A stretch of 34,109 nucleotides of DNA from Candidatus Bathyarchaeota archaeon (GCA_030668645.1 DAOVFC010000001.1:1-34109); one strand, 5' to 3'. Counted from the first letter of the stretch, positions 6,362 through 33,690 are shown. Notes: generated from the letters alone by a model not told the origin. Translations and numbers: made by a program.

Positions 6362-6643
6362 ATGGTTATATGGCCTGTTTACTTCGATTCGACGAAAACG
6401 AGAAATGAAGGAAGGCGAATCCCGAAAAGTTTGGCGGTGGCGTCTCCCAAAATTTTGGAGATAAAACAAGCGGTGGCAAAACTCGGTTTAGATCATGAAC
6501 TTGTATTGGATGCTGACTATCCGAAGACTCCTCGGCTGAAAACAGGTATGCTGTTGGTGGCAAAAAAGGAACCGAAAAACCAGATAATCAAAAAGATTGC
6601 TAAGCAGCTACCGAAAATCCGCAGTGCAGCCACAACAAAATAG
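6362..6643 (+). CDS. srp19: Signal recognition particle protein SRP19
   Basis: MVIWPVYFDSTKTRNEGRRIPK is the SRP19 signature N-terminus. ATG 6362 is preferred over TTG 6344. Confidence 0.8.
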   Translation: MVIWPVYFDSTKTRNEGRRIPKSLAVASPKILEIKQAVAKLGLDHELVLDADYPKTPRLKTGMLLVAKKEPKNQIIKKIAKQLPKIRSAATTK

Positions 6644-7050
6644 GGTTTAACTTATCTTATGTAGCGCGCGCTGTTACTTGCACATCCAGATGCTCTCCAT
6701 CAAACGATATTATTTAAAGGTGGAACAGTCACCACGCAGTATTATTGAGTCGACCCTTTAGAAGCCATTGGGAATGTGCTCTAATTCGAACTTTACGATT
6801 TTATTTATCATTTCTTTGTTCATGTTGATTTCTTCTCATTTGGAATGTGAATCCAGCAATCTTCGCTCCTTTGCCCACGTAAACATAGTGTCCGAGTACA
6901 CGATTACTGCCTGTTTCAACGTTTTTCCCCGCGGACGAAGCGTCAGACCTTTGTGTCTTCTCTTATCTTAGCGGTTTTATCAACAATCGCAGTGGACGTA
7001 AACACCCTTCACAAGAGAAAAACCGTTGAGACGTTAATCCTCTTTTTGAA

Positions 7051-7980
7051 CTAGACATCCTTGGTGACTTTTTTACTGTATTCGTCCCAGCTCTTGATTA
7101 TTTCATTTAGAAGTTCGGGCTGTAGGTTGTAGAAGGCTTCGACATCCTTCTCTTTAAAGAAAACCCTCACAGCGAAAGTTCTCTGAAGCCTGTCTAGTCC
7201 AACACTCCCCATGTAACCCATGTAGTCTGTAGCGACGGTCACCTCAGGTTTCTTTACAAACACTTCCTTGTGCCTATTGTAGAAGGAGTCGATGACCGGA
7301 GCGATGCAGTTTTCGATCAACCCTGCATTTGTAATGTCCCCGGGGAGGGTGGGTGGGAAACCCACTCTGAACGTATAGTCAACTATATCCTTTTTGGAGT
7401 AGTTCAAGATTCGGCTGTCTAAGATTTGTTTGTTAGGGATATCCATGAGGTTGTGGGTAGGCGTGTAGATCTTTGTGTAGTTAACCGTTATCTCCCTGAC
7501 TTGACCTTCCACGTTTCCTATCTTCACGTAGTCTGATACTGTGAAGGGTCTGGATATCATGATGTATAATCCTGCTAGGAAGTTTCCAACGGTCTGTGTG
7601 GCGGCGAAACCTATGGCAGCACCGCTTAGGGCAGAGAGGCTCAGAATAACGCTTGTGTCTATGTTGAATATTGGGAGGATTATGGTTATAGCGGTGGCAA
7701 AGATGACGATTCGCGCGATCACCTTGAACACGTTTTCTATGTGCTCCACCAAACCAATCCTTTTAGAATACCGCTTGATCGCTCCTCCAACCACTCGATC
7801 GGCGACGATCGCCCCGACTAAAACGATGACCGCCTTCAAAGCCAGAACCATGTTGTCTAAGGTAACAAAATCTAAGCTTCCTAGCTCTTGGAGAACGTCC
7901 CATTGCGCTGCGAAATAGCTGATTGCACCCATAGCTACGATGATCAAGATTATAGCCGTAGCATAAGCAATCCTATTCAT
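7051..7980 (-). CDS. Small-conductance mechanosensitive channel (MscS family)
   Basis: Three N-terminal TM helices, then the MscS pore/beta-domain block GNFLAGLYIMISRPFTVSDYVKIGNVEGQVREI. Confidence 0.75.
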   Translation of the reverse strand: MNRIAYATAIILIIVAMGAISYFAAQWDVLQELGSLDFVTLDNMVLALKAVIVLVGAIVADRVVGGAIKRYSKRIGLVEHIENVFKVIARIVIFATAITIILPIFNIDTSVILSLSALSGAAIGFAATQTVGNFLAGLYIMISRPFTVSDYVKIGNVEGQVREITVNYTKIYTPTHNLMDIPNKQILDSRILNYSKKDIVDYTFRVGFPPTLPGDITNAGLIENCIAPVIDSFYNRHKEVFVKKPEVTVATDYMGYMGSVGLDRLQRTFAVRVFFKEKDVEAFYNLQPELLNEIIKSWDEYSKKVTKDV

Positions 7981-8430
7981 CCATGTACACCACTGATCAA
8001 TCGCTTAGGTGCCTTCGGATTTTATTCTCGGTCGGAACATGTCTCATGCATCCTTTCTTCCACTTCTTCCTCCAACTCACTCACTGCCATGATTATGGAT
8101 TTTTTCATAGATTGCCTTCAACAAATGTTTCTCGCGCGCGCTTAAATTCTTTCCTTCTTTCGTTTCAAGTAAGATCTTTAAGGATTTATATAAAAGACTT
8201 GCTATTTTTCATCTAAATCGAAAATCCTTTATATAGTGGCATATATACCTAACTAATATGGTTCAACGGTTTCTTTGACCGTTAGACGACTTTAACGCTG
8301 CTTCATTCAGGTATATGAGGAAATCGAATTTGTTCTTGGAACAACATGTTTTCCTCGCATCTCGAAGCGCGACGTAACATCTCCCCTCTTTGAAGCTGCG
8401 CAAAACCACAACATAGGGTGATTATACAAG

Positions 8431-9606
8431 ATGCAGAGTATAGAAAATCATAGTTCAACCTCCTTAAGGAGCCTAGAAACTACTCAACGGGTTCTAAAAA
8501 TATTGTTCTTAGAGCCTCAGCCGTGTATACGAGCTTTAAAATATGCTATTGGATTGAGACACTGTCTGGGAAACAACGTATCCCTCTGTTTTGGGCATTC
8601 CGGACACTCACTAAGCAGGTTATACGGGTTTGGGGAAGAGTATTTCGATCAAATAATTCAGCTTGATCCGGAAAAAATCAGTGACGATATGCGTAGAATC
8701 ATTAACAAGTATAAGCCTCACATCATTCACAGTCATAACGCGCCAAACATCTTGACATTGACAGCCATTGATGTTGCTGAGGACATACCTGTAATCCATG
8801 ATGTGCATGAAGTTCTATCCGTCCATAATTCGGGTTTCTTTAGGGATGACGATGAAGAAAAATTAGCGAGGTACCGTGAGGAGGAAAGAAGAGCTTGCGA
8901 AGAGAGCGGCGGGCGGATTTATGCTACAGATGGAATTAAAAGATACGTTCAACAACGATACAATGTTGATGCTCAAAACGATATTGTATTTTACAACTAT
9001 GCCTCTAAATCAGTAATGCCTCAACATTTTAAGAAGAAAATATCCAATAAAGATAAAGAAACACATATAGTATATATCGGATGCGTTACCAGCGTTGTAA
9101 AGGGAAGTCATTATGACCTAAGAGAAATCTTCAGAAGAATAGCTGATCATAAAATTCACGTTCACATTTACCCCACAAGCGACCACATAACAAAAAGCAA
9201 TAGAACATATAAAAAATTAGCTGAACGCAACAGATTCATACATTGCCATGATACTTTAGGCTGCAAGAACTTGCTTTATGAGATAACACAGTATGATTTT
9301 GGTTGGGTAGGATTTAACGGTGCCAAAAATGGGAACCATTTAGACATCGCCCTTCCGAACAAGGTTCTCGAATATGTTAGCAGCGGTCTGCCAGTTATAG
9401 CGTTCCCGCATAAAACAATTCAGCGTTTCATAGAGAAATACGGCATAGGCTTGATCATTAAAGACGTTGACGAATTACCTGAAACTTTAAGAAATGTAAA
9501 CGTCTCTGAGTTAGAAGGACATGTTATGAGATGTAGACATAAATTGACTGTAGAAAGTAAGATTTCCAAACTTGTTGATTTCTACAACAAGATGATGGAG
9601 AATTAA
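8431..9606 (+). CDS. Glycosyltransferase, GT-B fold (group 1/GT4-like)
   Basis: C-terminal nucleotide-sugar block ALPNKVLEYVSSGLPVIAF (E-x7-E region). AT-rich relative to the flanks. Confidence 0.65.
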   Translation: MQSIENHSSTSLRSLETTQRVLKILFLEPQPCIRALKYAIGLRHCLGNNVSLCFGHSGHSLSRLYGFGEEYFDQIIQLDPEKISDDMRRIINKYKPHIIHSHNAPNILTLTAIDVAEDIPVIHDVHEVLSVHNSGFFRDDDEEKLARYREEERRACEESGGRIYATDGIKRYVQQRYNVDAQNDIVFYNYASKSVMPQHFKKKISNKDKETHIVYIGCVTSVVKGSHYDLREIFRRIADHKIHVHIYPTSDHITKSNRTYKKLAERNRFIHCHDTLGCKNLLYEITQYDFGWVGFNGAKNGNHLDIALPNKVLEYVSSGLPVIAFPHKTIQRFIEKYGIGLIIKDVDELPETLRNVNVSELEGHVMRCRHKLTVESKISKLVDFYNKMMEN

Positions 9607-9609
9607 CGG

Positions 9610-10569
9610 ATGGTGATTGAAACGGTTAATAAGGTAAACGTGCTGGATAACCCCTTTACCTACAATGAACACCTGAAGATTGAACAATCAGCAATGAAAA
9701 AGATTGAGTCGCAATACTGGACGCTTCTCTTGACGAGAAATGGAGCCGAGACTGTTCAGTTAACCGCGGAGTCGATTATGCATCAGACGATTCCTCCAGT
9801 AAGCATGTGCATCGTTGACGACGGTTCAAGCGACGATACACCCCTCATTCTTGAAGAATTAAGACATAAATATCCCGAAAGAGTCAACGTTGTCACTCTC
9901 CAGGATGAAGGCTACGATATCCGACGAGTAGTAAAAAACATTAATGTCGGGGTAGAGGCGCAGAAAAAAGAAAAAATCAAAGCAGAATACATAATGATTA
10001 GCGGGGATGATTGCGTATACCCTCCACGTTATGCTGAGCATATCCTAGTCAAGATGAACAGAGATCATAGAATTGTTGTTGCATCAGGAGATATAGAGGG
10101 GATCCCCCACCCTGATGTAACCCCGAGGGGATCGGGGCGTTTTATAAGGACCAGATTCTTTCATAAAATAGGAGGGCATTTCCCTCCCTACTATGGCTAT
10201 GAGGGATGGATATTTCAAAAAGCCTTACAGTTAGGCTACTCCACTAAAAATTACTCAGACATTCGGTATCGTCATCTCCGCGAGCTGGGGAAACAACATG
10301 GATTCATAACTTGGGGATTAGCAATGAAATGTTTAGGATATCACCCTCTTGAAGTTCTATACCGCTGTATAAAATATGTTCTAATAGATCGCCGTGTGCC
10401 CGTGGGATATATACGCGTATTATGGAACTACTTCATCCAACCCTTAACAGTAAAGGGAGACCCCTATTACCACTCCTTCGATGAGGATGTTCGAACCTAT
10501 ATACGAGAGAAACAGAAGCGCAGAACAATTCATGAAATAGCCAACCTCTTGGGATTAAACAAAAGATAA
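9610..10569 (+). CDS. Glycosyltransferase family 2
   Basis: LLLTRNGAETV...IVDDGSSDDT and ISGDD motifs of GT-A/GT2 enzymes. Lies 3 nt after the preceding glycosyltransferase gene. Confidence 0.75.
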   Translation: MVIETVNKVNVLDNPFTYNEHLKIEQSAMKKIESQYWTLLLTRNGAETVQLTAESIMHQTIPPVSMCIVDDGSSDDTPLILEELRHKYPERVNVVTLQDEGYDIRRVVKNINVGVEAQKKEKIKAEYIMISGDDCVYPPRYAEHILVKMNRDHRIVVASGDIEGIPHPDVTPRGSGRFIRTRFFHKIGGHFPPYYGYEGWIFQKALQLGYSTKNYSDIRYRHLRELGKQHGFITWGLAMKCLGYHPLEVLYRCIKYVLIDRRVPVGYIRVLWNYFIQPLTVKGDPYYHSFDEDVRTYIREKQKRRTIHEIANLLGLNKR

Positions 10570-10733
10570 ATCAAGTGAAATGAAGGTCTTAATGGCTGGT
10601 TCAGATGTATGTGTAAGAAAAATAGCACCCGATTCATGTTAATTTCCTCTTATTTAGAATGCGAACCCAGCGCGCATTGTAAAGTCGAGGAAAATTTAAA
10701 AAGATTTTCGATTTGAATGGAAGATAGCAAATC

Positions 10734-10740
10734 TTATATA
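10734..10740 (+). promoter_or_regulatory. Candidate archaeal TATA box (TTATATA)
   Basis: AT-rich TATA-like heptamer about 39 nt upstream of the ATG at 10779. Confidence 0.3.
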
Positions 10741-10778
10741 CTGACTTTTGCAAATATCGTTCCAAGTTAAGAGTGAAA

Positions 10779-10922
10779 ATGTTGAGTGAACCACAACCAC
10801 CATCTGTCTCGAAGATAGAAATTACCTTAGACGCTGATCTAATGAACAATCTGAAGACGAAGGTTGATGCCGCAAACAAAGCCCGCGCGGTTTATGAGCG
10901 TGAGTTTCCTGTTGGAAAATAA
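10779..10922 (+). CDS. 47-aa micro-ORF, possibly ribbon-helix-helix-like
   Basis: My own translation (below the ORF-track cutoff): [63 protein letters not shown] resembles an RHH strand-helix start. Overlaps the start region of the next gene. Confidence 0.3.
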
Positions 10923-11457
10923 AACTCTTGAGGAAAGAAAGACTCTAACCCTTATTAAGCTTAGAGGTTACAAGCTGATAAGACGCGAGAAACAAGAGGA
11001 TACCATCAATTTCATAGTTAAACTTCCAAGAGGGAAAAAAGCAGTTATCTGGTGCATGCCGAACCGCAAAGTGGTGGGAGTAGCCATTGTTAGAAAACTA
11101 AGAAAATTTATGGATGCAGTTGAAGTTGAAAAAGGAATTATAGTTGCTAACACACGATACACTTGGGCTTCTAAAAGAGAAGGAAGGAAATATGGTATAG
11201 AGCTGATTCCGAAACGTATTCCGTCCTTTAACATTTTCAAGCACAAGTTGGTACCGAAACATGAAATTCTTCCACCTGAGAAAGCAAGAGACCTGTTAGA
11301 AAAGTATCATATAAAGCCGTATCAACTTCCCCGAATTAAAGCATCAGATGTAGCTGTAATTGTAATAGGTGCAAAGCCAGGAGACATCATTAAAATCACC
11401 AGAAAAAGCCCTACAGCAGGAAAACACGTTGCATATAGATTCGTCGCTCCTGGATAA
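10894..11457 (+). CDS. rpoH: RNA polymerase subunit Rpo5/RpoH with an N-terminal Rpb5-jaw-like (restriction-endonuclease-fold) domain
   Basis: The C-terminal part from 11242 ([36 protein letters not shown]...[27 protein letters not shown]) is canonical RpoH. About 115 extra N-terminal aa carry [23 protein letters not shown] and [14 protein letters not shown]. The start could be 10864, 10867 or 10894. Confidence 0.8.
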
Positions 11458-11493
11458 CGCATAGATTTGAAGAATAAATGTGATTAGTGCAAC

Positions 11494-12714
11494 ATGGATA
11501 ATGAAATGTTAAAAGACTGGCGTAAACGAAGTAAGCGTGGCTATTTCGTCAGCACCTCCCCCGAATATGAATTGCTACTGAAAGATGACAGCGTTGAAAA
11601 GTGGATTACGAAGTTAAAACAGAAAGATGGATGGAGAACAACTGTTCCCAGTTTTCTGAGAACCTTGTACAAATTCACTAAATACTCAGGTAAGAGCCCG
11701 AAGGAATTGATCGATATCGCGTCTAGCACCAAAAAACTTGACCAGCGAGAAGAATTGACTTCTGCCTCTCCTGCAATCACGGAGCTTGTGCAAGGGTTTA
11801 TAAATAAACTGCTAAGTTCTGATAAACGAGAAAGGGCAAGACACGTAAGGACTTGCCTGACGTCCTTTTTCAAAGCGAACGGCGTCTCTTTAGAGCTTGA
11901 AACTATTCCTAGGGTGCCCAAAAAAGAAGAGTTTATTCCAAGCAAAGAACAGATTTACGCTATGGCAGACTATGTCGGTTCTCTTCGAAACCGAGCTATA
12001 ATCCTATGTATGTATCAGAGCGGACTAGGAATAACCGCCTTACGGAACCTCAAATATGGACATGTCAAAAAACAGCTTGAAAAAAACAGAGTTCCAGTAA
12101 GAATTCGCATCACGTCCCGTATTAATAGAAAGTCTTCGCAAGTGCCGTTTTATGCTTTTTTTGGAGCCGAGGCTTGCGATTCTTTGAGAGCCTACATTAA
12201 CGAGAGGGAAAGAAAAATTCAAAAAATGAGGGAAAAAGGAGCTAACGTAAGAGAGTTGACGGCAAACAGTCCCTTATTTGCATCTGAAGGAAAAAACGTG
12301 CCCTTTGGAGACAAAATGGCGGTCTCAAGCATCTGGCGCGTTGTTAAAGACGCGGCGGAGCGGGCTGGCTTGCAAAAAGAAAAAATTCAACCCAATTACC
12401 TGAGAAAAGCATTCGAAGCAGAGTTAAACAGGTCACTTATAGACGAAGAAGCGAAGAAATATCTGATGGGAAGCCCCATTCAAGGCATAAAATATAACGT
12501 CAACAAAGTTGAACAAAAATATTTAATACGCAACTTCAGCAGAGCAGAACTTAGCAAACTGACAGTTGTCAAAGAGTTTGTTCAATCGCTCGGAATAAAG
12601 GAACTCGAAATAAAAATACAAAAAGGCTTAGAACAGAACCCGCAAATGACAGAAATGGAAGCCGTAAGATTCATTGTGCGTAAAGAATTTGCATCAGACT
12701 CTAAAAAGAATTGA
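11494..12714 (+). CDS. Tyrosine recombinase/integrase-like protein with non-canonical active-site residues
   Basis: SAM-like N-domain (SFLRTLYKFTKYSGKSPKELIDI, TCLTSFFKANGV). Catalytic-domain blocks RNRAIILCMYQSGLGITALRNLKYGHV, NYLRKAFEAEL and YLMGSPIQGIKY. Confidence 0.8.
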   Translation: MDNEMLKDWRKRSKRGYFVSTSPEYELLLKDDSVEKWITKLKQKDGWRTTVPSFLRTLYKFTKYSGKSPKELIDIASSTKKLDQREELTSASPAITELVQGFINKLLSSDKRERARHVRTCLTSFFKANGVSLELETIPRVPKKEEFIPSKEQIYAMADYVGSLRNRAIILCMYQSGLGITALRNLKYGHVKKQLEKNRVPVRIRITSRINRKSSQVPFYAFFGAEACDSLRAYINERERKIQKMREKGANVRELTANSPLFASEGKNVPFGDKMAVSSIWRVVKDAAERAGLQKEKIQPNYLRKAFEAELNRSLIDEEAKKYLMGSPIQGIKYNVNKVEQKYLIRNFSRAELSKLTVVKEFVQSLGIKELEIKIQKGLEQNPQMTEMEAVRFIVRKEFASDSKKN

Positions 12715-12844
12715 AAATGGATAATTACGCGTGAAAGTGTTGCAAAAACAGATTTCGGAATTTTTTCTACTTTAGAAGGGAATCCAGTTGATTGATCCAC
12801 TGGTTAAACTCTTTTCATACATACTTCGTAAGTGTAGAGTTGAC

Positions 12845-18739: not shown

Positions 18740-18910
18740 GATAAACTCACGGTCTTCTGTCCAGCTATCACAGTAAACACTTGCCAGTATAAAGGAATTA
18801 CCATCCAGCCGGGAAACCTACATCAAAACTAAAATAATCCTGATGCCGCGCCGCATTTTCTATCAGTTGAAATGGAGAAAAATGCAATAGGTGATCAGGA
18901 AGGACAGGGA

Positions 18911-19114
18911 ATGGGAATCGAAGCTCTAAAAGAGTAGATCACAGAACTGAAAGCTCGAATCGAAGAGTTAGAGGGCGACAGAAAAAGGAAATCACCTTTG
19001 CAACGTGGCGAACTAGAACAGATATTATCCGCTCGTGTTCACGTTTTAGATAAGATTTTTCTGGCATTCTTGAAAAATTTTTCAGACCATCTATGCGTAT
19101 TCGCCGTCGTTTGA
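18911..19114 (+). pseudogene. Coiled-coil ORF interrupted by an in-frame TAG at 18935-18937
   Basis: My own translation: MGIEALKE*ITELKARIEELEGDRKRKSPLQRGELEQILSARVHVLDKIFLAFLKNFSDHLCVFAVV*. The sequence stays protein-like across the stop. Confidence 0.3.
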
Positions 19115-19416
19115 GCTGAGAGGTTAAGATTTCTGCAAAACTTAGCATGCCTTCAAGGTCACATTTGCCCTGAAGTGTTTTTAGTCACTGAGATGTACCA
19201 TGAGAAATTGAGGGAACCTAGTACTGTATACAGTGCGTGTTTCACTCTGTTTTCTGTTGAACATCTAAGCGGCCAAAGGGCATGTTGATGCTCGGCAACT
19301 AGTCCTATGACGGGTATGATTGATTTTTGCCCACACATTAAGAAACTTATTCGCAGAACAGGTTCAAAATTAAATATATGGTCAATTTGTCAGTTATTTC
19401 TATTCTAGAGGAAACC

Positions 19417-19423
19417 TTTAAAA
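19417..19423 (+). promoter_or_regulatory. Candidate archaeal TATA box (TTTAAAA)
   Basis: About 40 nt upstream of the GTG at 19463, at the head of the four-gene small-protein operon. Confidence 0.3.
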
Positions 19424-19462
19424 GGAAAACTAAGTATATGGGTAAAGTGAACCGATGAGCGT

Positions 19463-19582
19463 GTGCCTTTGCCAAGAAAATATCGAAGGATAAAAGTTAA
19501 AGGGCATTACCGGGCTGTCGCACGGGATTCAAGTGGAAGATTCAAGAAAGTAAAGAAATGGAGTAGTAAGAAAGAGAGGTGA
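19463..19582 (+). CDS. 39-aa highly basic micro-ORF
   Basis: My own translation: VPLPRKYRRIKVKGHYRAVARDSSGRFKKVKKWSSKKER. Its TGA overlaps the GTG of the next ORF (GTGA), which suggests translational coupling. Confidence 0.3.
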   Translation: MPLPRKYRRIKVKGHYRAVARDSSGRFKKVKKWSSKKER

Positions 19583-19878
19583 ATGCTAAGATGGCGTATG
19601 ATCATGATGAAATAGCAAATAGGCTTGCTAAGAAATCTGGATCGAGACATAGAAGGAAAGGGGTTGATATCGTTTCTAAGGGTAGGGCTATAGAAGTTGC
19701 AGTCACTCAAGGTGATATGTATGCATCCGTTGGGCAACTCAAACGATCAAGGGCGCGCAAGAAGTATATGGCGGTTCCGGCTCCTATGATTCCGGATGCG
19801 AGAAGGTTGCTCAAAGGTTCGGGAATCGGAATAATGAATACAAGAGGACGGATTCGAAAAAGGTCAAGAAAGAAATAA
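19579..19878 (+). CDS. Small basic protein with a PD-(D/E)XK-like core (GVDIV...IEVAVTQ) and an Arg/Lys tail
   Basis: 99-aa ORF (alternative ATG at 19591). KGVDIVSKGRAIEVAVTQGD resembles the D...E-x-K strands of minimal nucleases such as Hjc/YraN, but with Ala in the Lys position. C-terminal RGRIRKRSRKK. Confidence 0.5.
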   Translation: MNAKMAYDHDEIANRLAKKSGSRHRRKGVDIVSKGRAIEVAVTQGDMYASVGQLKRSRARKKYMAVPAPMIPDARRLLKGSGIGIMNTRGRIRKRSRKK

Positions 19879-19917
19879 TTAAGATTATAAGAAAATGAAT
19901 GAAGATGAAATTAAGAA

Positions 19918-20148
19918 ATGGCATTAATTGCCTTAATTTTCCTTGTAGGATTTGGTATCTTTCCCATCGTAGTTCTTGAATGGTTCATTAAGAATGTTAC
20001 TACACCAATAGGAACGATTGAACAATTCGCAAAAGTTCTTAGCTCGTCGAACCCATGGATGTGGGGTTTTGGATTACTAGGCATCGCTATAACGGGTTTA
20101 ATCACGGCAACCATATGGGCGTGGATCAAAGAGAAAATAGGATTGTGA
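19918..20148 (+). CDS. Small membrane protein with two predicted TM helices
   Basis: Hydrophobic stretches LIALIFLVGFGIFPIVVLEWFI and WMWGFGLLGIAITGLITATIWAWI. The overlapping minus-strand ORF looks non-coding. Confidence 0.6.
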   Translation: MALIALIFLVGFGIFPIVVLEWFIKNVTTPIGTIEQFAKVLSSSNPWMWGFGLLGIAITGLITATIWAWIKEKIGL

Positions 20149-20157
20149 CGCCCAACA

Positions 20158-20796
20158 TTGAGATTACGTCCGCGCGATTGCATTGTTGATAAAATACAAC
20201 AATGTAAGGATTGTGAAAAATACTCTCAAGTCCTGTGCATGAAGCCTAAGCCTTACGTTAAGTTTCAGGTTCTTGAAAGGTGGAGGCCAACGAAAGTGAA
20301 GGTGCTTTTCATTGCAGAGTCACCGCCAAAGGATGGAAATGAGGGGTATTTCTACAATGAGAAAACAGAAGGTAGACTTAAAGACAAAATCTTCAATTTG
20401 CTGGATATACCTGAAGAAAAAGCCGAGAGAGGATTGCAAAGGTTTAAACAAAGAAATTTCCTCCTCATCGACACCGTTAAATGTAGGTTAGACAAGTCGC
20501 AGGGAAAAAGTCCCCCTCCCTATGTCATTAAGAGATGCGCTGAAAACTTTTTGCAAAAAGAAATAGACGGTTTGAAGCCAGATAAAATCTGCGTACTGGG
20601 TAGGACTGCCCTAAAGGGTTTGAAGGCTATTACCACTTTTAGAAAGGGGCTAAACGGAGTTAGAAAAATAACAGAGCATTGTGGAAAAGAGCTGACGATA
20701 TCAGGTTATGAAATCATTCTATGCGTTTTTCCGAGTAATCGAAACAGGAAATATCAATCATGCATAGAATCCGTTTTTGGTCTCTGGGTTCCATAA
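20158..20796 (+). CDS. Uracil-DNA glycosylase superfamily protein, Fe-S (family 4/5-like) type with divergent catalytic motifs
   Basis: Cys pattern C-x2-C (CKDC, 20203-20214) plus VKCR-x17-C, as in family 4 UDGs. Motif A reads FIAESPP (20308-20328) and motif B reads VFPSNRN. TTG start 10 nt after the membrane ORF. Confidence 0.7.
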   Translation: MRLRPRDCIVDKIQQCKDCEKYSQVLCMKPKPYVKFQVLERWRPTKVKVLFIAESPPKDGNEGYFYNEKTEGRLKDKIFNLLDIPEEKAERGLQRFKQRNFLLIDTVKCRLDKSQGKSPPPYVIKRCAENFLQKEIDGLKPDKICVLGRTALKGLKAITTFRKGLNGVRKITEHCGKELTISGYEIILCVFPSNRNRKYQSCIESVFGLWVP

Positions 20797-20819
20797 GGTC
20801 ACAAGAGTTCATGCCGTCG

Positions 20820-20850
20820 CGCCGGGGGTGGGATTTGAACACCTGGGCGT
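20820..20850 (-). other. tRNA 3-prime-end-like remnant (T-arm plus acceptor strand), not an intact tRNA
   Basis: The minus strand reads AGGTG-TTCAAAT-CCCAC-CCCCGGC-G. The T-loop and acceptor strand are recognisable, but the 5-prime T-stem strand is 2 nt short. No matching GCCGGGG 5-prime acceptor, D-arm or anticodon arm was found. Confidence 0.35.
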
Positions 20851-21232
20851 GGAGATATCACTTGCGAACCTCTCTTTTTAGTACGCACGCGCAGAAGTTT
20901 TTGGACGCCGTTGCCGCGTTGGAAAAGCTCGGCTGGATTACGTTTATGCTTGCTGTCCCAGAATATAATAAGCGGATGCTGAAAGGAAAAGTCAATAAAG
21001 TAAAAGTAATTCTCGCAAAATTTTCTTTTCCATACAGCCGGAGAATCGGTGGGGAGCACACTCACTTCACCAGAGGGACTATAAAGAATGGCTTAAGGAA
21101 GCATCCATAAACCACTTAAGTCTAGCGCTTAGACGTCTTGCACAGCTAAACCAAACAAAAGTCTACCCGTTCTGGCGGAACCCTGCTTTTCAAGATAGTG
21201 CATGCATTTTAACTCTCTCAGAATACCAAAGA

Positions 21233-21239
21233 TTTTATA
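21233..21239 (+). promoter_or_regulatory. Candidate archaeal TATA box (TTTTATA)
   Basis: Ends 22 nt upstream of the ATG at 21262. The spacing fits a leaderless or short-leader transcript. Confidence 0.35.
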
Positions 21240-21261
21240 CAATCGCAGACAATGTGTTTTC

Positions 21262-24200
21262 ATGGCACAAACCCGTCTCCCCGTCATCCAGGTAGCTCCT
21301 GAAAAAAGAGAAGAACTTGACGAAAAACTAAGGGAGATTTATCAAAACCTTAAGAACAAGTTTAAGGTTTTTGGGACTTTTCAGGACGTACTGGTCAAGT
21401 CAAAAGATTATCATTCAAAAGATTTGAAAGATGAACAATCACCAGAGGAATTCGCCAAAAGAGCAGTAATTGAACCACTCATTGAGTTTTTAGGATATGA
21501 ATTCGTCCCTGAGACTATCCTACCTTCACCTGGGGGCAGGAAAAAGCCTGATTACACAATTAGACCCAGAAGTAAGGATAAGCCAATCTTCTACGTAGAA
21601 GCAGAACCAATCAATATTGATCTGAATAGCAAAGACCATGGAGTCTCACAGGTAAAAGATTGGCTGATATCTAGAGCTTCTAAGACTGATTATGGTATTG
21701 CCACCGATGGACTTCAATGGATTCTACTAAAATTTGACACTGCATCAGCGCAAAGTAAAGAGTTCCTAAAAGTGGATCTGAGACCTGTCTTCTTAAAATT
21801 GCTTAACCCAGCTGCCTTTGTCAGTAAAAAAGAAGTAGAAAAAATAGAGGAAGATTTCCTCACTTACCACCGTGAATACGTTTCGTTGTTCCTAGAAGGC
21901 TACTTGGAGAGAATTGAGAAAAAGAAGGAGGAAATCTCAAAGAGGTTCTATAATGATTACGTAAGATATGTTTTTGGGTACGATCAGAAGGGTGACACCA
22001 TTCAAGGCACATGTCTGTTGAAGAGAGTAGTGACACCTTCGGGTGCAAACTACAATGATGCAAACTCATTTTCAGTTGTGTTTATGAATAGGATTATCTT
22101 CATCAAATTCCTTGAAGAAAAAGGAATAGTGCCAAAGAACCTACTGAAGAAAATGCTTGAAAATTACAAACATTCAAGGACTCCAGCTTCATTTTATGAA
22201 ACTTATCTGAAACCTCTCTTCTATGAGGTTTTTAACAAGAGTAAAGATGGTAGAACCTCTACAGTAAAAAACAACTCTCTCTACAGTCAGATCCCCTATT
22301 TGAATGGTGGACTGTTTAGGGAAGTAATCGAATCCGAAAAGAATTTTAACATAGAAAATGAGGGTGTTGAACTTGTCATAGAGAACCTTTTGGATCGCTA
22401 TGAATTCGGTTTAGAGTCGGACATAAACCCAGACATATTGGGCTATATTTTTGAGAAAACAATTAACTTCATTTCTGGAACTGGCACAAACCAGCAGAAA
22501 ATGCAGGGAGCATACTACACCCCTGATGATACTGTGGGATTTATCATAGAGGAAACGTTGACACCCGTTGTTTTCAGAAAAATGATTGATGGTTTGAAGA
22601 AGGCGGGATGGAGCGATACCGATCTGAAGGGGTATAATTCAATAGAAGACATACTGGACCCGGTGCACGTGCCCAAGAATCCAATGCACATCAAGAAAAT
22701 GATTGAATCATTAGGACTGCTTAGAGTTCTTGATCCAGCTTGTGGTTCAGGTCACTTCTTAACTGCTATGCTCTCATTGATTCTGAGAGTAAAGGAAAGC
22801 TTGTTGAGAGCAATTCCTGAAGACGTTGATAGATACAGGCTGAAGAGAGAGATAATATCTCAAAATCTATTCGGAGTTGATATTGATGAAAATGCAATCG
22901 AAATAGCCAGATTGAGACTATGGCTATCGATAATAGAAGAAGTTGAAGATCTAGAACATATTGAGACGCTACCAAATATAGATTTCAACATTATTGCAGG
23001 AAATAGCCTCATAGGTTTATTGGATGAAAATCTCTTGACGCATCCTCTGATAAACCTGTTGGAAGACCCACACGTACAAGGGACACTAGAAAATTTAAGA
23101 GAATTTTATGGAAACAAGATAGATGAAGTCAGAGATCTTCTCGGCAGGATGAAGTTGAAGGACACTATCAAAGCTTACGAGACCCTTTTAGGCGTTTACT
23201 CTGTAGAATCGGGAGAACGAGCTGTCAAAGTTAGGGATTTGCTAGAAAAGATCAGAGACAAGTTATACGAAGTCATTAGCAACTCGTATCTCGATTTTCT
23301 CCACGAAAACGGCAATCTGAAAAAAAGTGAATTCGATGAAATAAGCAAGAACCTATCGAGTAGAATGCCTTTTCACTGGAAAATCGATTTTGAAAATGTC
23401 TTCGCAGAAGGCGGATTTGATGTAGTTGTGGGGAATCCACCATATGTAGAAGATAGGAACTACAACAAAACTGATCTCAGAATCATCAAATCTCAGAAGG
23501 AGATCAAGAAGGGAAGAAAAAAAGTCAGAGAACCTCTTTTCTACGTTTCAAATAATTGCAGAAACACTCATGCCTATTTCATTGAAAGATCAATTAAACT
23601 ATTAAAGCGAAACGGCAGGTTTGGGTTCATTGTCCCAATCGCTCTTGTGTCCACTGATAGAATGGGCTCTATAAGAGAGTTTATTCATGACAACTCAAGC
23701 GAAGTGAAATACTTCAGTTTCGATGATCGCCCCGGCAAGATATTTAGTGGTTTGGAGCATTGTAGAGCCACAATCGTAATCACAGAAAAGGATACAGAGG
23801 CAAAGAAAGTGATTACGAGCAAATATCACAGGTGGTTCTCTAGGGACAGAGCTAAACTCTTCAAGGATCTTAAAACTAGTGATTGGACAGTTGAAAATCC
23901 AGAAGAAACAGTACCGAAAATAGGGACAAAGATCGAAAAGAGAATACTCACGAAACTTCAACAAAAATCAAAGGGAAAGGCCCTTAGAGACTTCGAGAAA
24001 GCTGATGGAGCAAAAATTTGGTATTATAATGCGCCACAGTATTGGATACACGCTCATACAGAAGATTACCTACCGGAAGTTGAACACTATAACAGTTGCA
24101 GGGAGAACGACAAGACCAGAGAAAAAATACCATATGACTTGAGAGAGAGAAAGATATCATCACATTATAAACCTTTGACTTTCGAGTCAGAAAATTCATT

Positions 24201-24567
24201 TGTCGTCAATAGTTTAATGAACAGTTCTTTATTCTACTGGTGGTTTGTCGTGTGGTCTGATGGTCGAGATCTCTTAGCCCAACATATCAAGTGTTTTCCC
24301 CTCGACCTAGACAATTTCTCTGAAAATCTGAAAAAGAGACTAAAGCCACTGATTAACGAACTGATGAGAAGCTACGATGAAAATTCTAACCTCAAAATTA
24401 ATCTGAGATCTGGTGGATATGTGATAAAAATAAAGGAGATAATCCCATCAAAATCGATAAGTATCATTGATCAAATTGATGATGTATTCGCAGATTACTT
24501 TGGATTTATCGAAGAGGAAAGAAGGTTTATCAAGGAATTTGATATAGGATTCAGAATTAAGGATTAG
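21262..24567 (+). CDS. Type IIG restriction-modification fusion (N-terminal HsdR-N/PD-(D/E)XK-like domain, gamma-class N6-adenine methyltransferase, C-terminal TaqI-like specificity domain)
   Basis: KPDYTIRP...IFYVEAEP and GIATDGLQWILLKF in the N-domain. GAYYTPDD, VLDPACGSGHFL, LFGVDIDENAIEIARLRL and VVGNPPYV (NPPY at 23434-23445). C-terminal LMNSSLFYWWFVVWSDGRDL. Met21 of the listed ORF is preferred as the start. Confidence 0.85.
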   Translation: MAQTRLPVIQVAPEKREELDEKLREIYQNLKNKFKVFGTFQDVLVKSKDYHSKDLKDEQSPEEFAKRAVIEPLIEFLGYEFVPETILPSPGGRKKPDYTIRPRSKDKPIFYVEAEPINIDLNSKDHGVSQVKDWLISRASKTDYGIATDGLQWILLKFDTASAQSKEFLKVDLRPVFLKLLNPAAFVSKKEVEKIEEDFLTYHREYVSLFLEGYLERIEKKKEEISKRFYNDYVRYVFGYDQKGDTIQGTCLLKRVVTPSGANYNDANSFSVVFMNRIIFIKFLEEKGIVPKNLLKKMLENYKHSRTPASFYETYLKPLFYEVFNKSKDGRTSTVKNNSLYSQIPYLNGGLFREVIESEKNFNIENEGVELVIENLLDRYEFGLESDINPDILGYIFEKTINFISGTGTNQQKMQGAYYTPDDTVGFIIEETLTPVVFRKMIDGLKKAGWSDTDLKGYNSIEDILDPVHVPKNPMHIKKMIESLGLLRVLDPACGSGHFLTAMLSLILRVKESLLRAIPEDVDRYRLKREIISQNLFGVDIDENAIEIARLRLWLSIIEEVEDLEHIETLPNIDFNIIAGNSLIGLLDENLLTHPLINLLEDPHVQGTLENLREFYGNKIDEVRDLLGRMKLKDTIKAYETLLGVYSVESGERAVKVRDLLEKIRDKLYEVISNSYLDFLHENGNLKKSEFDEISKNLSSRMPFHWKIDFENVFAEGGFDVVVGNPPYVEDRNYNKTDLRIIKSQKEIKKGRKKVREPLFYVSNNCRNTHAYFIERSIKLLKRNGRFGFIVPIALVSTDRMGSIREFIHDNSSEVKYFSFDDRPGKIFSGLEHCRATIVITEKDTEAKKVITSKYHRWFSRDRAKLFKDLKTSDWTVENPEETVPKIGTKIEKRILTKLQQKSKGKALRDFEKADGAKIWYYNAPQYWIHAHTEDYLPEVEHYNSCRENDKTREKIPYDLRERKISSHYKPLTFESENSFVVNSLMNSSLFYWWFVVWSDGRDLLAQHIKCFPLDLDNFSENLKKRLKPLINELMRSYDENSNLKINLRSGGYVIKIKEIIPSKSISIIDQIDDVFADYFGFIEEERRFIKEFDIGFRIKD

Positions 24568-24612
24568 GTAAGCAGGTCTGTCCCTAAAGTCATAAACGCT
24601 TATGTCTACTCT

Positions 24613-24626
24613 CATTGTTAACAATG
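24613..24626. repeat. Perfect 14-nt palindrome CATTGTTAACAATG between convergent genes
   Basis: Read directly from the sequence, 46 nt after the type IIG stop. Could be a hairpin or a dimeric binding site. Confidence 0.5.
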
Positions 24627-24672
24627 TGTAAAACTCATTTAACTCCTCAGTGAACCAACAAAGATTTTTCCT

Positions 24673-25390
24673 CTATAGTTCACGCTTTCTTGTTTTGTAT
24701 TGCATGGTGTGCATGTCGATGAGGGCTCCGGTTGCGATTGCGTTTACTCCTGTTGAAAAAGCTATAAGTACAAGGAGGGTGTCATGCAGGTTCTCTGTCC
24801 AACCACTCGGCCAACTAATTATGCAGTAAACGGTTGAAGCAATTATGACGATTCCATGCATGCATAGTTGACGATGTATTGATAGAATTGGAAATAGTCC
24901 CTTGAATCCAACGCTAAGGGGTGCCACGGTGCGCGTTCCCAAATTAGCCCCTTATCATCGCCATACAACCAGCTGTAGACATCTGCAAGGCCGTCATAAG
25001 AGCTGTAGGTTTCAGGAGGCCATTGCGTAATTGTGTGCCAAAAACGAACTCCGTAATCATGAACGTCGATGGTTCCCTTCGGAGGACGAGGTGTACCGCC
25101 AACCGCTATTAAATAAGACATGAAGTTGATGTATGGGGTGAGTTCGTTCCAGTCTAATTCAACAGCGATATATGGAAGTTCACCAACGCCAAATTCATCG
25201 TGCACTAATGCGCCACTTGGGTCGTTGATGTACACTTTTTGGGATCCACCTGCAGTGCTGTAGCCGACGATTACAACCGTATGTTCGATACCCCTCATGA
25301 CCAGAAGTATAGGCCTCTCTCTGTCTATCCAATATGTTACAGGCGAATACGATGATGGAGGCAGAATCTTCAGAAAGCGAAAATAGAATA
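24673..25390 (-). pseudogene. Decayed papain-like (C39-like) cysteine peptidase gene, lacking its N-terminus and frameshifted near the C-terminal TM region
   Basis: ERPILLVMRGIEHTVVIVGY...KVYINDPSG is the His-containing block of C39-like peptidases. No room or start exists for the Cys-containing N-terminal half before the psmA promoter. The two-TM tail (24673-24942) is in another frame. Confidence 0.45.
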
Positions 25391-25485
25391 CTAAGGAAAA
25401 GTCCAGAACAAATAGGAAAAGGTTTTTAGTTCAGTTGTAATATGAAAGTCTGCAAGCAGGTTTAGAATGTGTGAGGTAAAAATAA

Positions 25486-26202
25486 ATGTCTATGTTTGCA
25501 GCACCAGGTGCATACGACCGTGTGATAACCGTTTTTTCACCGGACGGTCGATTGTTTCAAGTTGAGTACGCAATGGAGCTGGTTAACCGTGGAGCAACGA
25601 TTTTGGGAATAAAGTGCTCCGAGGGAGTGGTTTTAGGAGCAGAGGAAACTGTTGAAACATCCCTTGAGGATTCGGAAGGCTCATGGAAAATTTTCAAGAT
25701 CGATGACCATGTGGCCGCGGGTATAGTGGGTTTAAGCTCAGACGCACGCACACTCATAGACCAGGCACGCATATACGCTCAAAGCAACAAGCTAACCTAC
25801 GATGAGCCGATAGACCTTGAAGTGATAACGAAGAGGATATGTGACATAAAACAGCTTTACACGCAGCACGCAGGTGTGAGACCGTTCGGAGTTTCACTAA
25901 TCTTCGGCGGAGTGGACAAGACTGGAAACCGACTGTTCGGCACGCACGCAAGCGGAGCGTACAGGGGCTACAAGGCTACGGCTATGGGTGCGGGAAGAGA
26001 AACCGTGCTGAACATACTGAAGGAGGAATACCGTGAGGACATGAGTCTTGAAGACGCAGTAAGGCTTGCCGTAAAATGCTTGACGAAAGCCCTAGAAGCC
26101 AGACAGTTAGCTCCGAGAATAAAGATTGCAGTTATTCCTTCAGCAACCAAGAAGATGAAAATGCTCAGCGACGAAAAAATCGAAGGTTACATTAAGGGTT
26201 AG
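25486..26202 (+). CDS. psmA: Proteasome subunit alpha
   Basis: YDRVITVFSPDGRLFQVEYAME signature N-terminus. Confidence 0.95.
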   Translation: MSMFAAPGAYDRVITVFSPDGRLFQVEYAMELVNRGATILGIKCSEGVVLGAEETVETSLEDSEGSWKIFKIDDHVAAGIVGLSSDARTLIDQARIYAQSNKLTYDEPIDLEVITKRICDIKQLYTQHAGVRPFGVSLIFGGVDKTGNRLFGTHASGAYRGYKATAMGAGRETVLNILKEEYREDMSLEDAVRLAVKCLTKALEARQLAPRIKIAVIPSATKKMKMLSDEKIEGYIKG

Positions 26203-32955: not shown

Positions 32956-33690
32956 TTTTCAGGGAGAACGTACAGTTTTGAGGCTTCGCTGAAGGTTACT
33001 TACGCTTCCTAAAGATTTTGGAGCCTTCCATGTCGGTGACGTATTCAAAAACCAACCTTGACGAGCTTGCAGGCTTGTTTTAATCTTTTAGCGGCTTGGA
33101 AGTGGAATTCGTCGTTTTCTCTTGTGAAGAATCTCGTTGTACGCCCTGCAGCGCGCGTGGTTCAGGCGTTGGAAACTTTTCAACTGTTCAACAACCCTTC
33201 ATTTTCTTACCTCTGGTCTACCTGAAGACCTCTTAAACTGTCACTATATTTTTCTCGCCTTTTGAGGGGTATCATAACTCTATGTTGTTTCAGGATAGGG
33301 CTCTTTTTGCAGCCGACCCCCCTCCCCCGTTTTTCCCTTTCTAATTCATCTCAGATTGTTTGCTGCTTAGCTTTCTCAGCATTATAATCAACGCTGAAAG
33401 TCTTCACAGACCGCCTTCTGAGTCTCCAGCTCTCGCCTACATAAAGCCTCAGCAATCAAATCCACAATTACACCATCTTCGGGCATTAACCATCAACTCT
33501 CCATACTTCTCCGCTTGGCTTTTATCTTCGCGCGCTATATCAAACATGTGAAATAGCCAACGCTAAGCAGGGTTTTCAGGAGATATCTCCAGCGTTATCG
33601 CCTTTGAAGGATAAAGTAGTTAACTCGCATTCAAGTAGCTACTCTTAAATGAGCGGAATACTTCGCAAATAATCGGGCAGGCACATATAA

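Follow-up and report, generated by a model that had tools for sequence, protein, structure and literature searches.

The DNA analyzed here (the window) is a stretch of 34,109 nucleotides (nt) from a Candidatus Bathyarchaeota archaeon (GCA_030668645.1, DAOVFC010000001.1). It carries a cluster of four small open reading frames, ORF1 to ORF4, at positions 19463–20796 on the plus strand. The cluster appears to be mosaic cargo, carried in a decayed integrative element or defense island, and not a dedicated four-gene machine, a reading to which a probability of about 0.6 is given. It draws on observations of how the genes are arranged, of the island and the modular make-up of the cluster, of assigned folds and motifs, and of gene neighborhoods.

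In the proposed scheme a segment of ~6.6 kb with a low guanine plus cytosine (GC) content would have entered an integration hot spot flanked by the gene for a DUF2096 protein and by psmA, and two independent units would have been joined inside this segment into one transcription unit. Unit A would comprise its own promoter region together with ORF1, ORF2 and ORF3. ORF1 and ORF2 would be the split version of one protein, having a very basic N-terminal module and a domain of ~95 amino acids (aa) with the PD-(D/E)xK nuclease fold, and ORF3 would be a small membrane protein that travels loosely with them. Unit B would comprise a ~70 nt upstream block and ORF4, whose product is similar to uracil-DNA glycosylases (UDGs). 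The interval between the block and ORF4 would have received different genes in different lineages, in this case Unit A. Every biochemical activity in this scheme, and the defense role proposed for ORF4, is a prediction.

Gene order and co-occurrence

ORF1 (19463–19582) encodes an Arg/Lys-rich peptide of 39 aa when read from a GTG codon. ORF2 (19579–19878) encodes a 99 aa protein with a basic tail and overlaps ORF1 at the sequence GTGA. ORF3 (19918–20148) encodes a 76 aa protein. ORF4 (20158–20796) starts with TTG and encodes a 212 aa protein; it begins 9 nt past the ORF3 stop codon, and the gap between ORF2 and ORF3 is 39 nt. The ORFs exceed chance expectation, and ORF1, ORF2 and ORF4 have homologs elsewhere. 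The arrangement on one strand with overlaps or short spacers is as described in an earlier first-pass annotation of this DNA. The TATA-like box it placed ahead of the operon is also present, TTTAAAA at positions 19427–19433, ~30–35 nt before the ORF1 start, and is a putative promoter. The first-pass annotation is correct in every checkable detail.

That annotation also proposed that the four genes form a defense module. Co-occurrence was followed in homolog clusters from a collection of 5.8 billion sequences and in a scan of JGI metagenomes with a narrow ORF2 alignment, which gave 19 loci. The loci compared with the window are designated L001–L041, where L011 is a contig identical to the window sequence. 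The whole four-gene set is found only in L011 and in L017/L018. The latter display 88% nt identity over window positions 19212–20459. In L017 a full integrase is followed by ORF1 (97% aa identity), ORF2 (88%) and ORF3 (91%); the UDG-like gene that comes next carries a frameshift and is truncated, with about 100 codons remaining. The UDG-like gene is present in none of the 19 further metagenome ORF2 loci, nor in L005–L010. ORF2 is found without ORF4 in L005, L006 and L029 (ORF1 and ORF2, then an unrelated 74 aa ORF), in L007 (ORF2 alone) and in L008–L010. Conversely, ORF4 is found without ORF2 in L001–L004, L012–L015, L019 and L039–L041, and the remaining close UDG loci have either another gene as upstream partner or no partner at all. 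Because co-occurrence is limited to L011 and L017/L018, the four-gene set is a lineage-specific juxtaposition, and the genes occur together only in the trivial sense that the same lineage is seen again, once with a broken UDG-like gene.

A single multi-component anti-virus system, possibly including the restriction-modification (RM) enzyme encoded downstream, would account for the operon-like layout (one strand, the overlap and the gaps of 9 and 39 nt), for the same gene order in L017/L018 and for the RM gene next door. One further locus, L030, has an ORF3 homolog near an ORF2 homolog and a TIR protein. However, the co-occurrence is confined to one lineage with 88–100% nt identity in which the L017 copy of the UDG-like gene is broken, ORF2 is without that gene at all 19 further loci, close relatives of the UDG-like gene are preceded by other genes or by none, and linkage between the RM gene and ORF4 is seen only in the identical contig. 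A search of PADLOC-DB v2 also gives no match to ORF1–4 at E ≤ 1; the neighboring RM enzyme alone matches. A single four-gene system is thus very improbable and is largely refuted by the missing co-occurrence.

The genomic island

The window is archaeal, with genes for SMC, ScpA, ScpB and S8e on one side of the cluster and genes for the proteasome alpha subunit (psmA) and the exosome on the other, and the host is a Bathyarchaeota-like archaeon. When the DUF2096 protein was used to scan GTDB representative genomes, one locus was returned, in a Candidatus Bathyarchaeota metagenome-assembled genome (MAG; locus L016). L016 is collinear with the window and all of the flanking genes show 59–85% protein identity. 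ORF1–4, the RM gene and a 151 aa ORF have no counterpart in this syntenic MAG. Its gap between the DUF2096 gene and psmA is 3.1 kb and contains other cargo, i.e. a GNAT protein, an FprA-like flavoprotein, a helix-turn-helix protein and an integrase fragment. The GC content is 0.403 within positions 18740–25330, versus 0.463 on both flanks.

At the island edge upstream of psmA, positions 25315–25383 (plus strand) hold the decayed 3′ end of a tyrosine integrase gene, i.e. the last 23 codons, which end …QYVTGEYDDGGRIFRKRK before the stop codon. This sequence matches the C-terminus of the L008 integrase and also a 69 aa integrase C-terminal fragment at the same position in L016 (6999–7208 of L016). 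Positions 25328–25455 are 82% identical to L016. The remnant at 25315–25383 marks an integration hot spot upstream of psmA. The low GC content, the synteny break relative to L016 and the integrase remnant thus define a horizontally acquired variable island of ~6.6 kb (18740–25330) at this hot spot, between the DUF2096 gene of the SMC/ScpAB cluster and psmA.

The island resembles archaeal elements of the tyrosine-integrase type, where the attachment (att) site lies over the integrase 3′ end or a tRNA gene, in that the window has an integrase 3′ remnant; L008 has an integrase and L017 a full one. Unlike those elements, it lacks an intact integrase, a pair of att repeats and genes for replication or structural proteins. 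A direct repeat of the att-like sequence at 25290–25490 was sought at the left end of the island and not found, and no replication, structural or packaging genes are among its Pfam or PHROG matches.

ORF1, ORF2 and ORF3

Homologs of ORF1 begin with MPRKY, and the true start of ORF1 is therefore probably the TTG at position 19469. The peptide from this start has 37 aa, of which 16 are Lys or Arg, and an isoelectric point of 11.7. The ORF2 start given by gene callers and by all homologs is ATG 19591, which yields a 95 aa protein; its isoelectric point is 11.6, and both products are extremely basic. Between the window and L005 the ORF1 sequence differs at 37 of 114 nt, with 16 synonymous and 10 non-synonymous codon changes that are mostly Lys/Arg swaps. 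To judge by this substitution pattern, which fits a coding sequence, ORF1 is a real gene.

ORF1 is kept ahead of ORF2 in L005, L006 and L029 and in L017/L018. It is fused in frame to ORF2 in P0030, L026/L027 and L028 and is missing from about half of the ORF2 genes. Thus ORF1 is an optional N-terminal module of the ORF2 family that has been split off in this lineage. A programmed frameshift between the two was considered and rejected: the frame difference in the window is opposite in direction to that in L005, and there is no slippery heptamer. They are treated as separate genes.

A word search of the 5.8 billion sequences gives 13 clusters of ORF2 homologs, and a profile search of 1.84 billion representatives gives 89, nearly all of them stand-alone proteins of ~95–100 aa. 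ORF2 has no match in Pfam, NCBIfam, PHROG, PADLOC or PDB sequences. A known family was also sought with Pfam scans of 65 members and with a 65-member profile against PDB sequences, as well as in NCBIfam and PADLOC, and all of these were negative. The family displays the motif HD..A..(I/L)A...G(P/V)D(I/V)-x8-9-(I/V)EV...QL...Y.A.P...G(I/V)G(I/V)M...G.I.KR. Across the 65 members D26 is invariant and E35 is nearly invariant (≥90%), and the third position of the ExK motif is A, E or K, i.e. the Lys is not conserved.

The AlphaFold2 model of ORF2 has a predicted local distance difference test (pLDDT) score of 92 and the order α-β-β-α-β-α-β-β. Its best match in BFVD is a phage MmcB-like PD-(D/E)xK protein (TM-score 0.73, probability 1.0, E = 7e-4), and further matches are several entries annotated as restriction endonucleases and one protein of an uncultured archaeal virus. 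Against the PDB there are only weak matches, with E ≥ 0.17 (Cdn1, FAAP24, YaeQ and AF1548). The first-pass description of ORF2 as a minimal nuclease-like core with a basic tail is thus supported by the predicted fold. ORF2 is similar to MmcB-like and other minimal PD-(D/E)xK proteins in the model match and in the G(P/V)D...x8-9...(I/V)EV motif. Compared with MmcB-like proteins, it is ~50 residues shorter and lacks a conserved ExK Lys, and it differs in its strongly basic C-terminal tail and in the basic N-terminal module, ORF1, which is optional.

A conserved motif and the TATA-like box, TCTAGAGGAAAC-CTTTAAAA, lie ahead of ORF1 at positions 19404–19434 (plus strand) and are a predicted promoter. 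The motif TCTAGAGGAAA(N2)TTTA is found upstream of ORF1 in the window (19404–19420), in L017 (2061) and in L005 (9832 and 9852). The form TCTAGAGG is common to the window and L017; L005, whose coding part has only 66% identity, contains it twice. The sharing of TCTAGAGGAAA..TTTA by these three loci suggests that the ORF1/ORF2 unit carries its own promoter or operator.

Several relatives of ORF2 are located at the edges of integrative elements. L008 has an element of ~8.3 kb bounded by 128 nt direct repeats (111–237 and 8440–8566, 87.5% identical). The repeats include the 3′ end of the integrase gene, and the integrase is at one end of the element while the ORF2 homolog is the last gene at the other. 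This element also carries a STAND/KAP-like ATPase. In L017 ORF1 and ORF2 follow a full XerC/D-like tyrosine integrase. In L027 the ORF2 homolog is 1.2 kb from a tRNA-Ala gene, which is upstream, and in L032 ~140 nt separate the 3′ end of a tRNA gene from the start of ORF2. Two unrelated types of integrase are associated with ORF2. A consistent partner was sought in a Pfam survey of 60 neighboring proteins and nothing recurs except ORF1; the neighbors are mixed and include HFX_2341-like, HD, KAP NTPase, EcoRII-C and UvrD proteins, one integrase and housekeeping genes. We infer that ORF2 encodes a small protein of integrative elements that binds or cuts DNA; its gene tends to be at element edges next to att sites.

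It had also been suggested that the cluster is a remnant of an integrated virus or plasmid. The part of this that stands is the mobile element or island, as shown by the low GC content, the absence from L016, the integrase remnant and the contexts of ORF2; the conserved core of a known virus or plasmid family is not seen. Were the cluster the remnant of a small provirus or plasmid, ORF1–4 would be maintenance genes (regulation, excision or resolution, a membrane protein and genome repair) with no defense role. The integrases, att repeats or tRNA genes that adjoin ORF2 relatives are consistent with this, as are the integrase remnant in the window and the best fold matches of ORF2, which are MmcB-like proteins of phages and one protein from an uncultured archaeal virus. 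UDG-like domains are also frequent in viral and plasmid genomes, e.g. the phage DNA-polymerase family phrog_17 (E = 0.0016) and PDB 9qhs. However, no relative of ORF2 or ORF4 is present in the 2.9 million contigs of IMG/VR, where two protein scans and one DNA scan were negative, and PHROG matches are absent or marginal, none of them meaningful. The island and the related loci have no replication, capsid or packaging genes, and ORF4 relatives occur without an integrase, inside BREX or OLD neighborhoods. A provirus or plasmid remnant of this kind is unlikely.

A toxin-antitoxin or abortive-infection cassette is another explanation for ORF1 and ORF2, with or without ORF3, in which a nuclease toxin would be curbed by the basic peptide or by the membrane protein. 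This would account for the scattered, mobile distribution of ORF1/ORF2, for a small self-contained unit with its own promoter in many unrelated contexts, and for the nuclease-like fold, in which D26 is invariant and E35 nearly so; in this lineage the ORF2 protein is moreover split into two overlapping genes. But ORF1 is fused to ORF2 in several lineages and missing in about half of the cases, which is unlike an antitoxin, ORF3 is rarely present, and no toxin-antitoxin or abortive-infection model matches in PADLOC or Pfam. Such a cassette is clearly improbable, and a toxin-like addiction role for ORF2 is weaker than a DNA-binding or DNA-cutting role in integrative elements.

ORF3 had been described as a two-transmembrane protein, and two hydrophobic spans are found, at about positions 1–27 and 48–71 (Kyte-Doolittle, window of 19). 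ORF3 is lineage-restricted, and close homologs form only two clusters, both of 84 aa. The ORF3 of L017/L018 is 91% identical. In addition, a homolog with 61% identity is present in L030/L031, on the opposite strand and 1.4 kb from an ORF2 homolog. Adjoining the ORF3 and ORF2 homologs in L030, positions 276–941 encode a TIR_2/CAP12-Pycsar-type TIR protein with a C-terminal transmembrane and zinc-ribbon region.

ORF4, a divergent UDG-superfamily protein

ORF4 matches the Pfam UDG family PF03167 with E = 2.8e-12 and 47 bits (cut-off 24.3 bits). The ORF4 family is small and patchy, with 12 clusters among the 5.8 billion sequences. The nearest structures are those of family-4 UDGs (UDGa), UdgX and family-5 UDGs (PF03167; Thermus thermophilus 1UI0, Thermotoga maritima 1L9G, Mycobacterium smegmatis UdgX). 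A Foldseek search of the PDB, made with a low-confidence model, gives family-4 UDG (1UI1, 1L9G), UdgX and family 5 as top matches.

The N-terminal CxxC of ORF4 is C25/C28 (CKDC) and is present in the full-length members except P0010. C109 is invariant and C127 near-invariant, and they align with the Cys of KCRPP and with the next Cys in the Thermotoga and Thermus enzymes. The HMMER alignment places the ORF4 segment '...fllidtvkCr...C...' on 'vyitnivkCrpp...C' of these enzymes. The CxxC together with C109 and C127 reproduces the ligand pattern of the family-4 4Fe-4S cluster, and this, with the Pfam match, bears out the first-pass assignment of ORF4 to the Fe-S UDG superfamily as a prediction from conserved residues. 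Like family-4, UdgX and family-5 proteins, ORF4 displays CxxC...C...C at the positions of the 4Fe-4S ligands, the motif-A Glu, a 'KCR' segment and an 'LG.tAl' strand.

Unlike these proteins, ORF4 has less than 22% identity to them, an AESPP motif A, an invariant Asp in place of Asn and Phe/Tyr in place of the motif-B His. Motif A is defined as GE(A/G)PG (PMC10359453), and of this ORF4 keeps only the invariant Glu (E54) and one Pro. The invariant D105 is aligned to Asn80 of T. thermophilus UDG, which corresponds to N91 in UdgX. Motif B is FPS in ORF4 and (F/Y)PS or (F/Y)PG in the family, instead of HPS; F191, at the position of the motif-B His, is near-invariant (Y in 1 of 12 members). In UdgX, N91 and H178 form hydrogen bonds with uracil, 'like the other UDGs' (PMC10359453). 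The scores with the NCBIfam family-4 models are 24.2 bits for TIGR00758 (cut-off 125.3) and 22.6 bits for NF040953 (cut-off 250). Since motif A, the Asn, the His and the model scores all differ, ORF4 has a family-4 scaffold but is not a family-4 UDG by the defining residues.

In family-1 UDG, substitution of Asp for the equivalent Asn confers cytosine excision (PMC3989344, PMC11289083). By analogy, and given the aligned residues, a changed base specificity of ORF4 is a reasonable prediction. The protein keeps the family-4 Fe-S scaffold and the motif-A Glu, with both of the uracil-reading residues replaced (Asn to Asp, and the motif-B His to Phe), and it would flip out and excise, or at least bind, a base other than uracil, most plausibly a cytosine-type or modified pyrimidine.

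A more conventional explanation is that ORF4 is a divergent housekeeping glycosylase for the repair of uracil or other deaminated bases, which is by chance beside unrelated small genes. The Pfam UDG match, the family-4-type Fe-S ligands and the retained motif-A Glu agree with this, as do the ordinary metabolic and transport neighborhoods of the 40% identical relatives. On the other hand, ORF4 is absent at this site from the syntenic MAG, the family is very small and patchy (the 12 clusters noted above), and the scores are far under the NCBIfam family-4 cut-offs (24 versus 125 bits and 23 versus 250 bits). In addition, both residues that contact uracil are replaced, by the invariant D105 and the near-invariant F191 (residue roles from PMC10359453). 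A housekeeping function is on these grounds improbable. ORF4 is unlike family-4 UDGs in being encoded in variable islands beside defense genes and not as a core repair gene.

The upstream block and gene neighborhoods of ORF4

The close relatives of ORF4 (70–100% identity) differ in their neighbors. In the window the neighbor is a type IIG RM gene. In L001–L004 the UDG-like gene is accompanied by a bacteriophage exclusion (BREX) cluster (a PglXI-type methyltransferase at 1e-113, a BrxC/PglY-like protein and BrxL) and by a PD-Lambda-3_A-like protein. In L019/L039 the neighbor is an OLD/GajA-like (Gabija-like) ATPase-TOPRIM nuclease gene, which in L019 abuts the UDG-like gene. The gene that precedes it is that of a BglII-like 185 aa protein (fragment) in L039 and L019 and of an unrelated 185 aa coiled-coil/transmembrane protein in L001–L004. 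The suggestion of a defense neighborhood therefore survives for ORF4 only, whose relatives are near type IIG RM, BREX or OLD/GajA-like nuclease genes, and falls for the other genes of the cluster.

A conserved non-coding block of ~70 nt is located at positions 19208–19280 (plus strand), upstream of the UDG-like gene, and contains an imperfect inverted repeat, GAGGGAAC-N22-GTTTCACTC. With L019 and L041 excluded, the block is upstream of the UDG-like gene in all close relatives for which upstream DNA is available, namely in the window/L011, L017/L018 (the broken copy), L001–L003, L039 and L040. It is found in no locus that has ORF2 only. It may be an operator, an att-like site or a hot spot for cassette insertion. 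The DNA between the block and ORF4 consists of 87 nt with no gene in L040, of a whole gene, or of ORF1–3 in the window. L001 displays a 14 nt tandem duplication at the block junction. The block has no match in a DNA scan of IMG/VR and none in Rfam. A small RNA was considered for this block and rejected: the folding z-score is −1.5 to −1.9 on the plus strand and worse on the minus strand, there is no Rfam match, and the copies are too similar for covariation analysis.

DNA glycosylases are known to act in defense (PMC13160076, PMC10273834). In this concept, a single glycosylase from a mobile defense locus excises a base from the DNA of an invader (PMC13160076, PMC11611026, PMC10273834). ORF4 would share it with the defense glycosylases Brig1 and Brig3, which act on phage DNA with glucosyl-hydroxymethylcytosine or hydroxymethylcytosine, and with base-excision restriction enzymes such as R.PabI. 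Unlike these, ORF4 shows no detected sequence relationship to them, has no PADLOC match, comes from an archaeal host and has an Fe-S family-4 scaffold. ORF4 is a candidate stand-alone defense glycosylase with a predicted non-uracil specificity, a defense-island gene that would make abasic sites in foreign DNA beside RM, BREX or OLD-type systems. A bolder form of this proposal is a small archaeal clade of family-4-derived glycosylases whose pocket has been retargeted to a cytosine-type or modified pyrimidine. These would act as a single-gene 'restriction glycosylase' anchored to the cassette-accepting ~70 nt site, making the locus a cassette-capturing defense locus. In this full form the proposal is speculative and decidedly unlikely.

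Several observations weigh against the reading of the cluster as two joined units of mobile cargo with a defense glycosylase. Neither an intact integrase nor flanking direct repeats are present in the window island, and for this reason the term integrative element derives from remnants and relatives. The tight spacing and common strand suggest co-transcription. Because of the overlap, the 9 and 39 nt gaps and the single strand, the four genes may to some degree be functionally coupled in this lineage. ORF2 may bind rather than cut DNA, because the ExK Lys is not conserved and the fold matches in the PDB are not significant. With respect to ORF4, the AlphaFold2 model is poor (pLDDT 58), and the Asn-to-Asp analogy is drawn from family 1 and not from family 4. 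The 40% identical relatives (L012/L013) adjoin an ABC transporter gene and not defense genes. The defense association is based on ~3 independent neighborhoods, too few for statistics, and the adjacency may only reflect shared mobility, since defense islands and integration hot spots overlap.

The downstream RM gene and other features of the window

The type IIG RM gene reported downstream of ORF4 is present at positions 21202–24567 (plus strand). It encodes an MmeI/Eco57I-type enzyme of 1121 aa from the first ATG, with a possible start at 21263. The gap of 465 nt given for it fits this internal ATG; counted from the first ATG, it is 405 nt. Pfam matches are Eco57I (1.1e-30), N6_Mtase, MmeI_Mtase, MmeI_hel and, weakly, HSDR_N_2, and PADLOC gives REase_MTase_IIG (1.4e-81). 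The 1121 aa protein has the full domain set of MmeI-family type IIG enzymes, i.e. a fused nuclease, a helical spacer, a gamma-class N6-methyltransferase and a target recognition domain. Its linkage to ORF1–4 is found only in the window and the identical contig L011, thus in this strain only, and the enzyme is therefore a neighbor and not a partner.

The spacer between ORF4 and the RM gene (20797–21201) is decayed sequence without an intact gene and has no tRNA or Rfam match. Positions 21003–21098 resemble non-coding intergenic DNA of L012, and the same contig encodes a UDG homolog with 40% identity. A 116 aa ORF at 20760–21110 was considered as a fifth gene and rejected, as it has no family match and its sole similarity is to the non-coding L012 DNA. 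A sequence at 20826–20850 that is T-arm-like by eye was also rejected as a tRNA or att site; ARAGORN and Rfam (gathering threshold and E ≤ 10) were negative and the stem is broken. Upstream of the cluster, a 69 aa ORF at 18939–19148 (minus strand) was tried as a conserved divergent small gene, but the weak tblastn matches in L041 and L008 are not intact ORFs. The 151 aa ORF at 24843–25298 (minus strand) is probably a gene fragment. Its Pfam match to Peptidase_C39_2 is weak (E = 0.0049, residues 3–26 only) and is confined to the last ~25 positions of the C39-like peptidase domain.

A second low-GC island (0.41) is present at window positions 6400–12800 and is absent from the syntenic MAG L016. 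It encodes an MscS-like channel (7051–7980, minus strand), two glycosyltransferases (8431–9606 and 9610–10569) and a full 406 aa tyrosine integrase (11494–12714), whose gene adjoins that of S8e. Directly before the integrase gene, positions 10864–11457 (plus strand) encode a 197 aa protein in which an Mrr_cat-like PD-(D/E)xK domain (E = 1.5e-6) is joined to an Rpb5 C-terminal (RpoH) domain (E = 1.3e-30). This fusion is a long RpoH/Rpb5-like architecture that is unusual for an archaeon. A second decayed 3′ copy of the same integrase type as at 25315–25383 and in L016 is frameshifted and is located near the window end (32999–33131, minus strand); this integrase type ends …GFEYVTG.Y.DGG.IFRKRK before the stop.

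Significance

Two protein families of the window are of interest. The first is a small clade of Fe-S UDG-like proteins with an apparently rewired base pocket, whose genes are repeatedly near defense systems and are tied to a conserved upstream block. The second is a minimal PD-(D/E)xK family that lacks an annotation, has a basic N-terminal module that can be detached, and is encoded at the edges of archaeal integrative elements. ORF1/ORF2 constitute a compact unannotated family of this fold with about 89 clusters, and since it marks element edges in uncultured archaea, it could help to delimit integrative elements there. The window also illustrates that operon-like clusters adjoining an RM gene are not necessarily systems; this one is a recent mosaic.

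Should ORF4 indeed excise a base other than uracil from foreign DNA, it would add an archaeal Fe-S protein to the few known defense glycosylases. It would then also be a natural example of an Asn-to-Asp specificity switch, which so far has been engineered in family-1 UDGs, and a possible source of new base-specific glycosylases.

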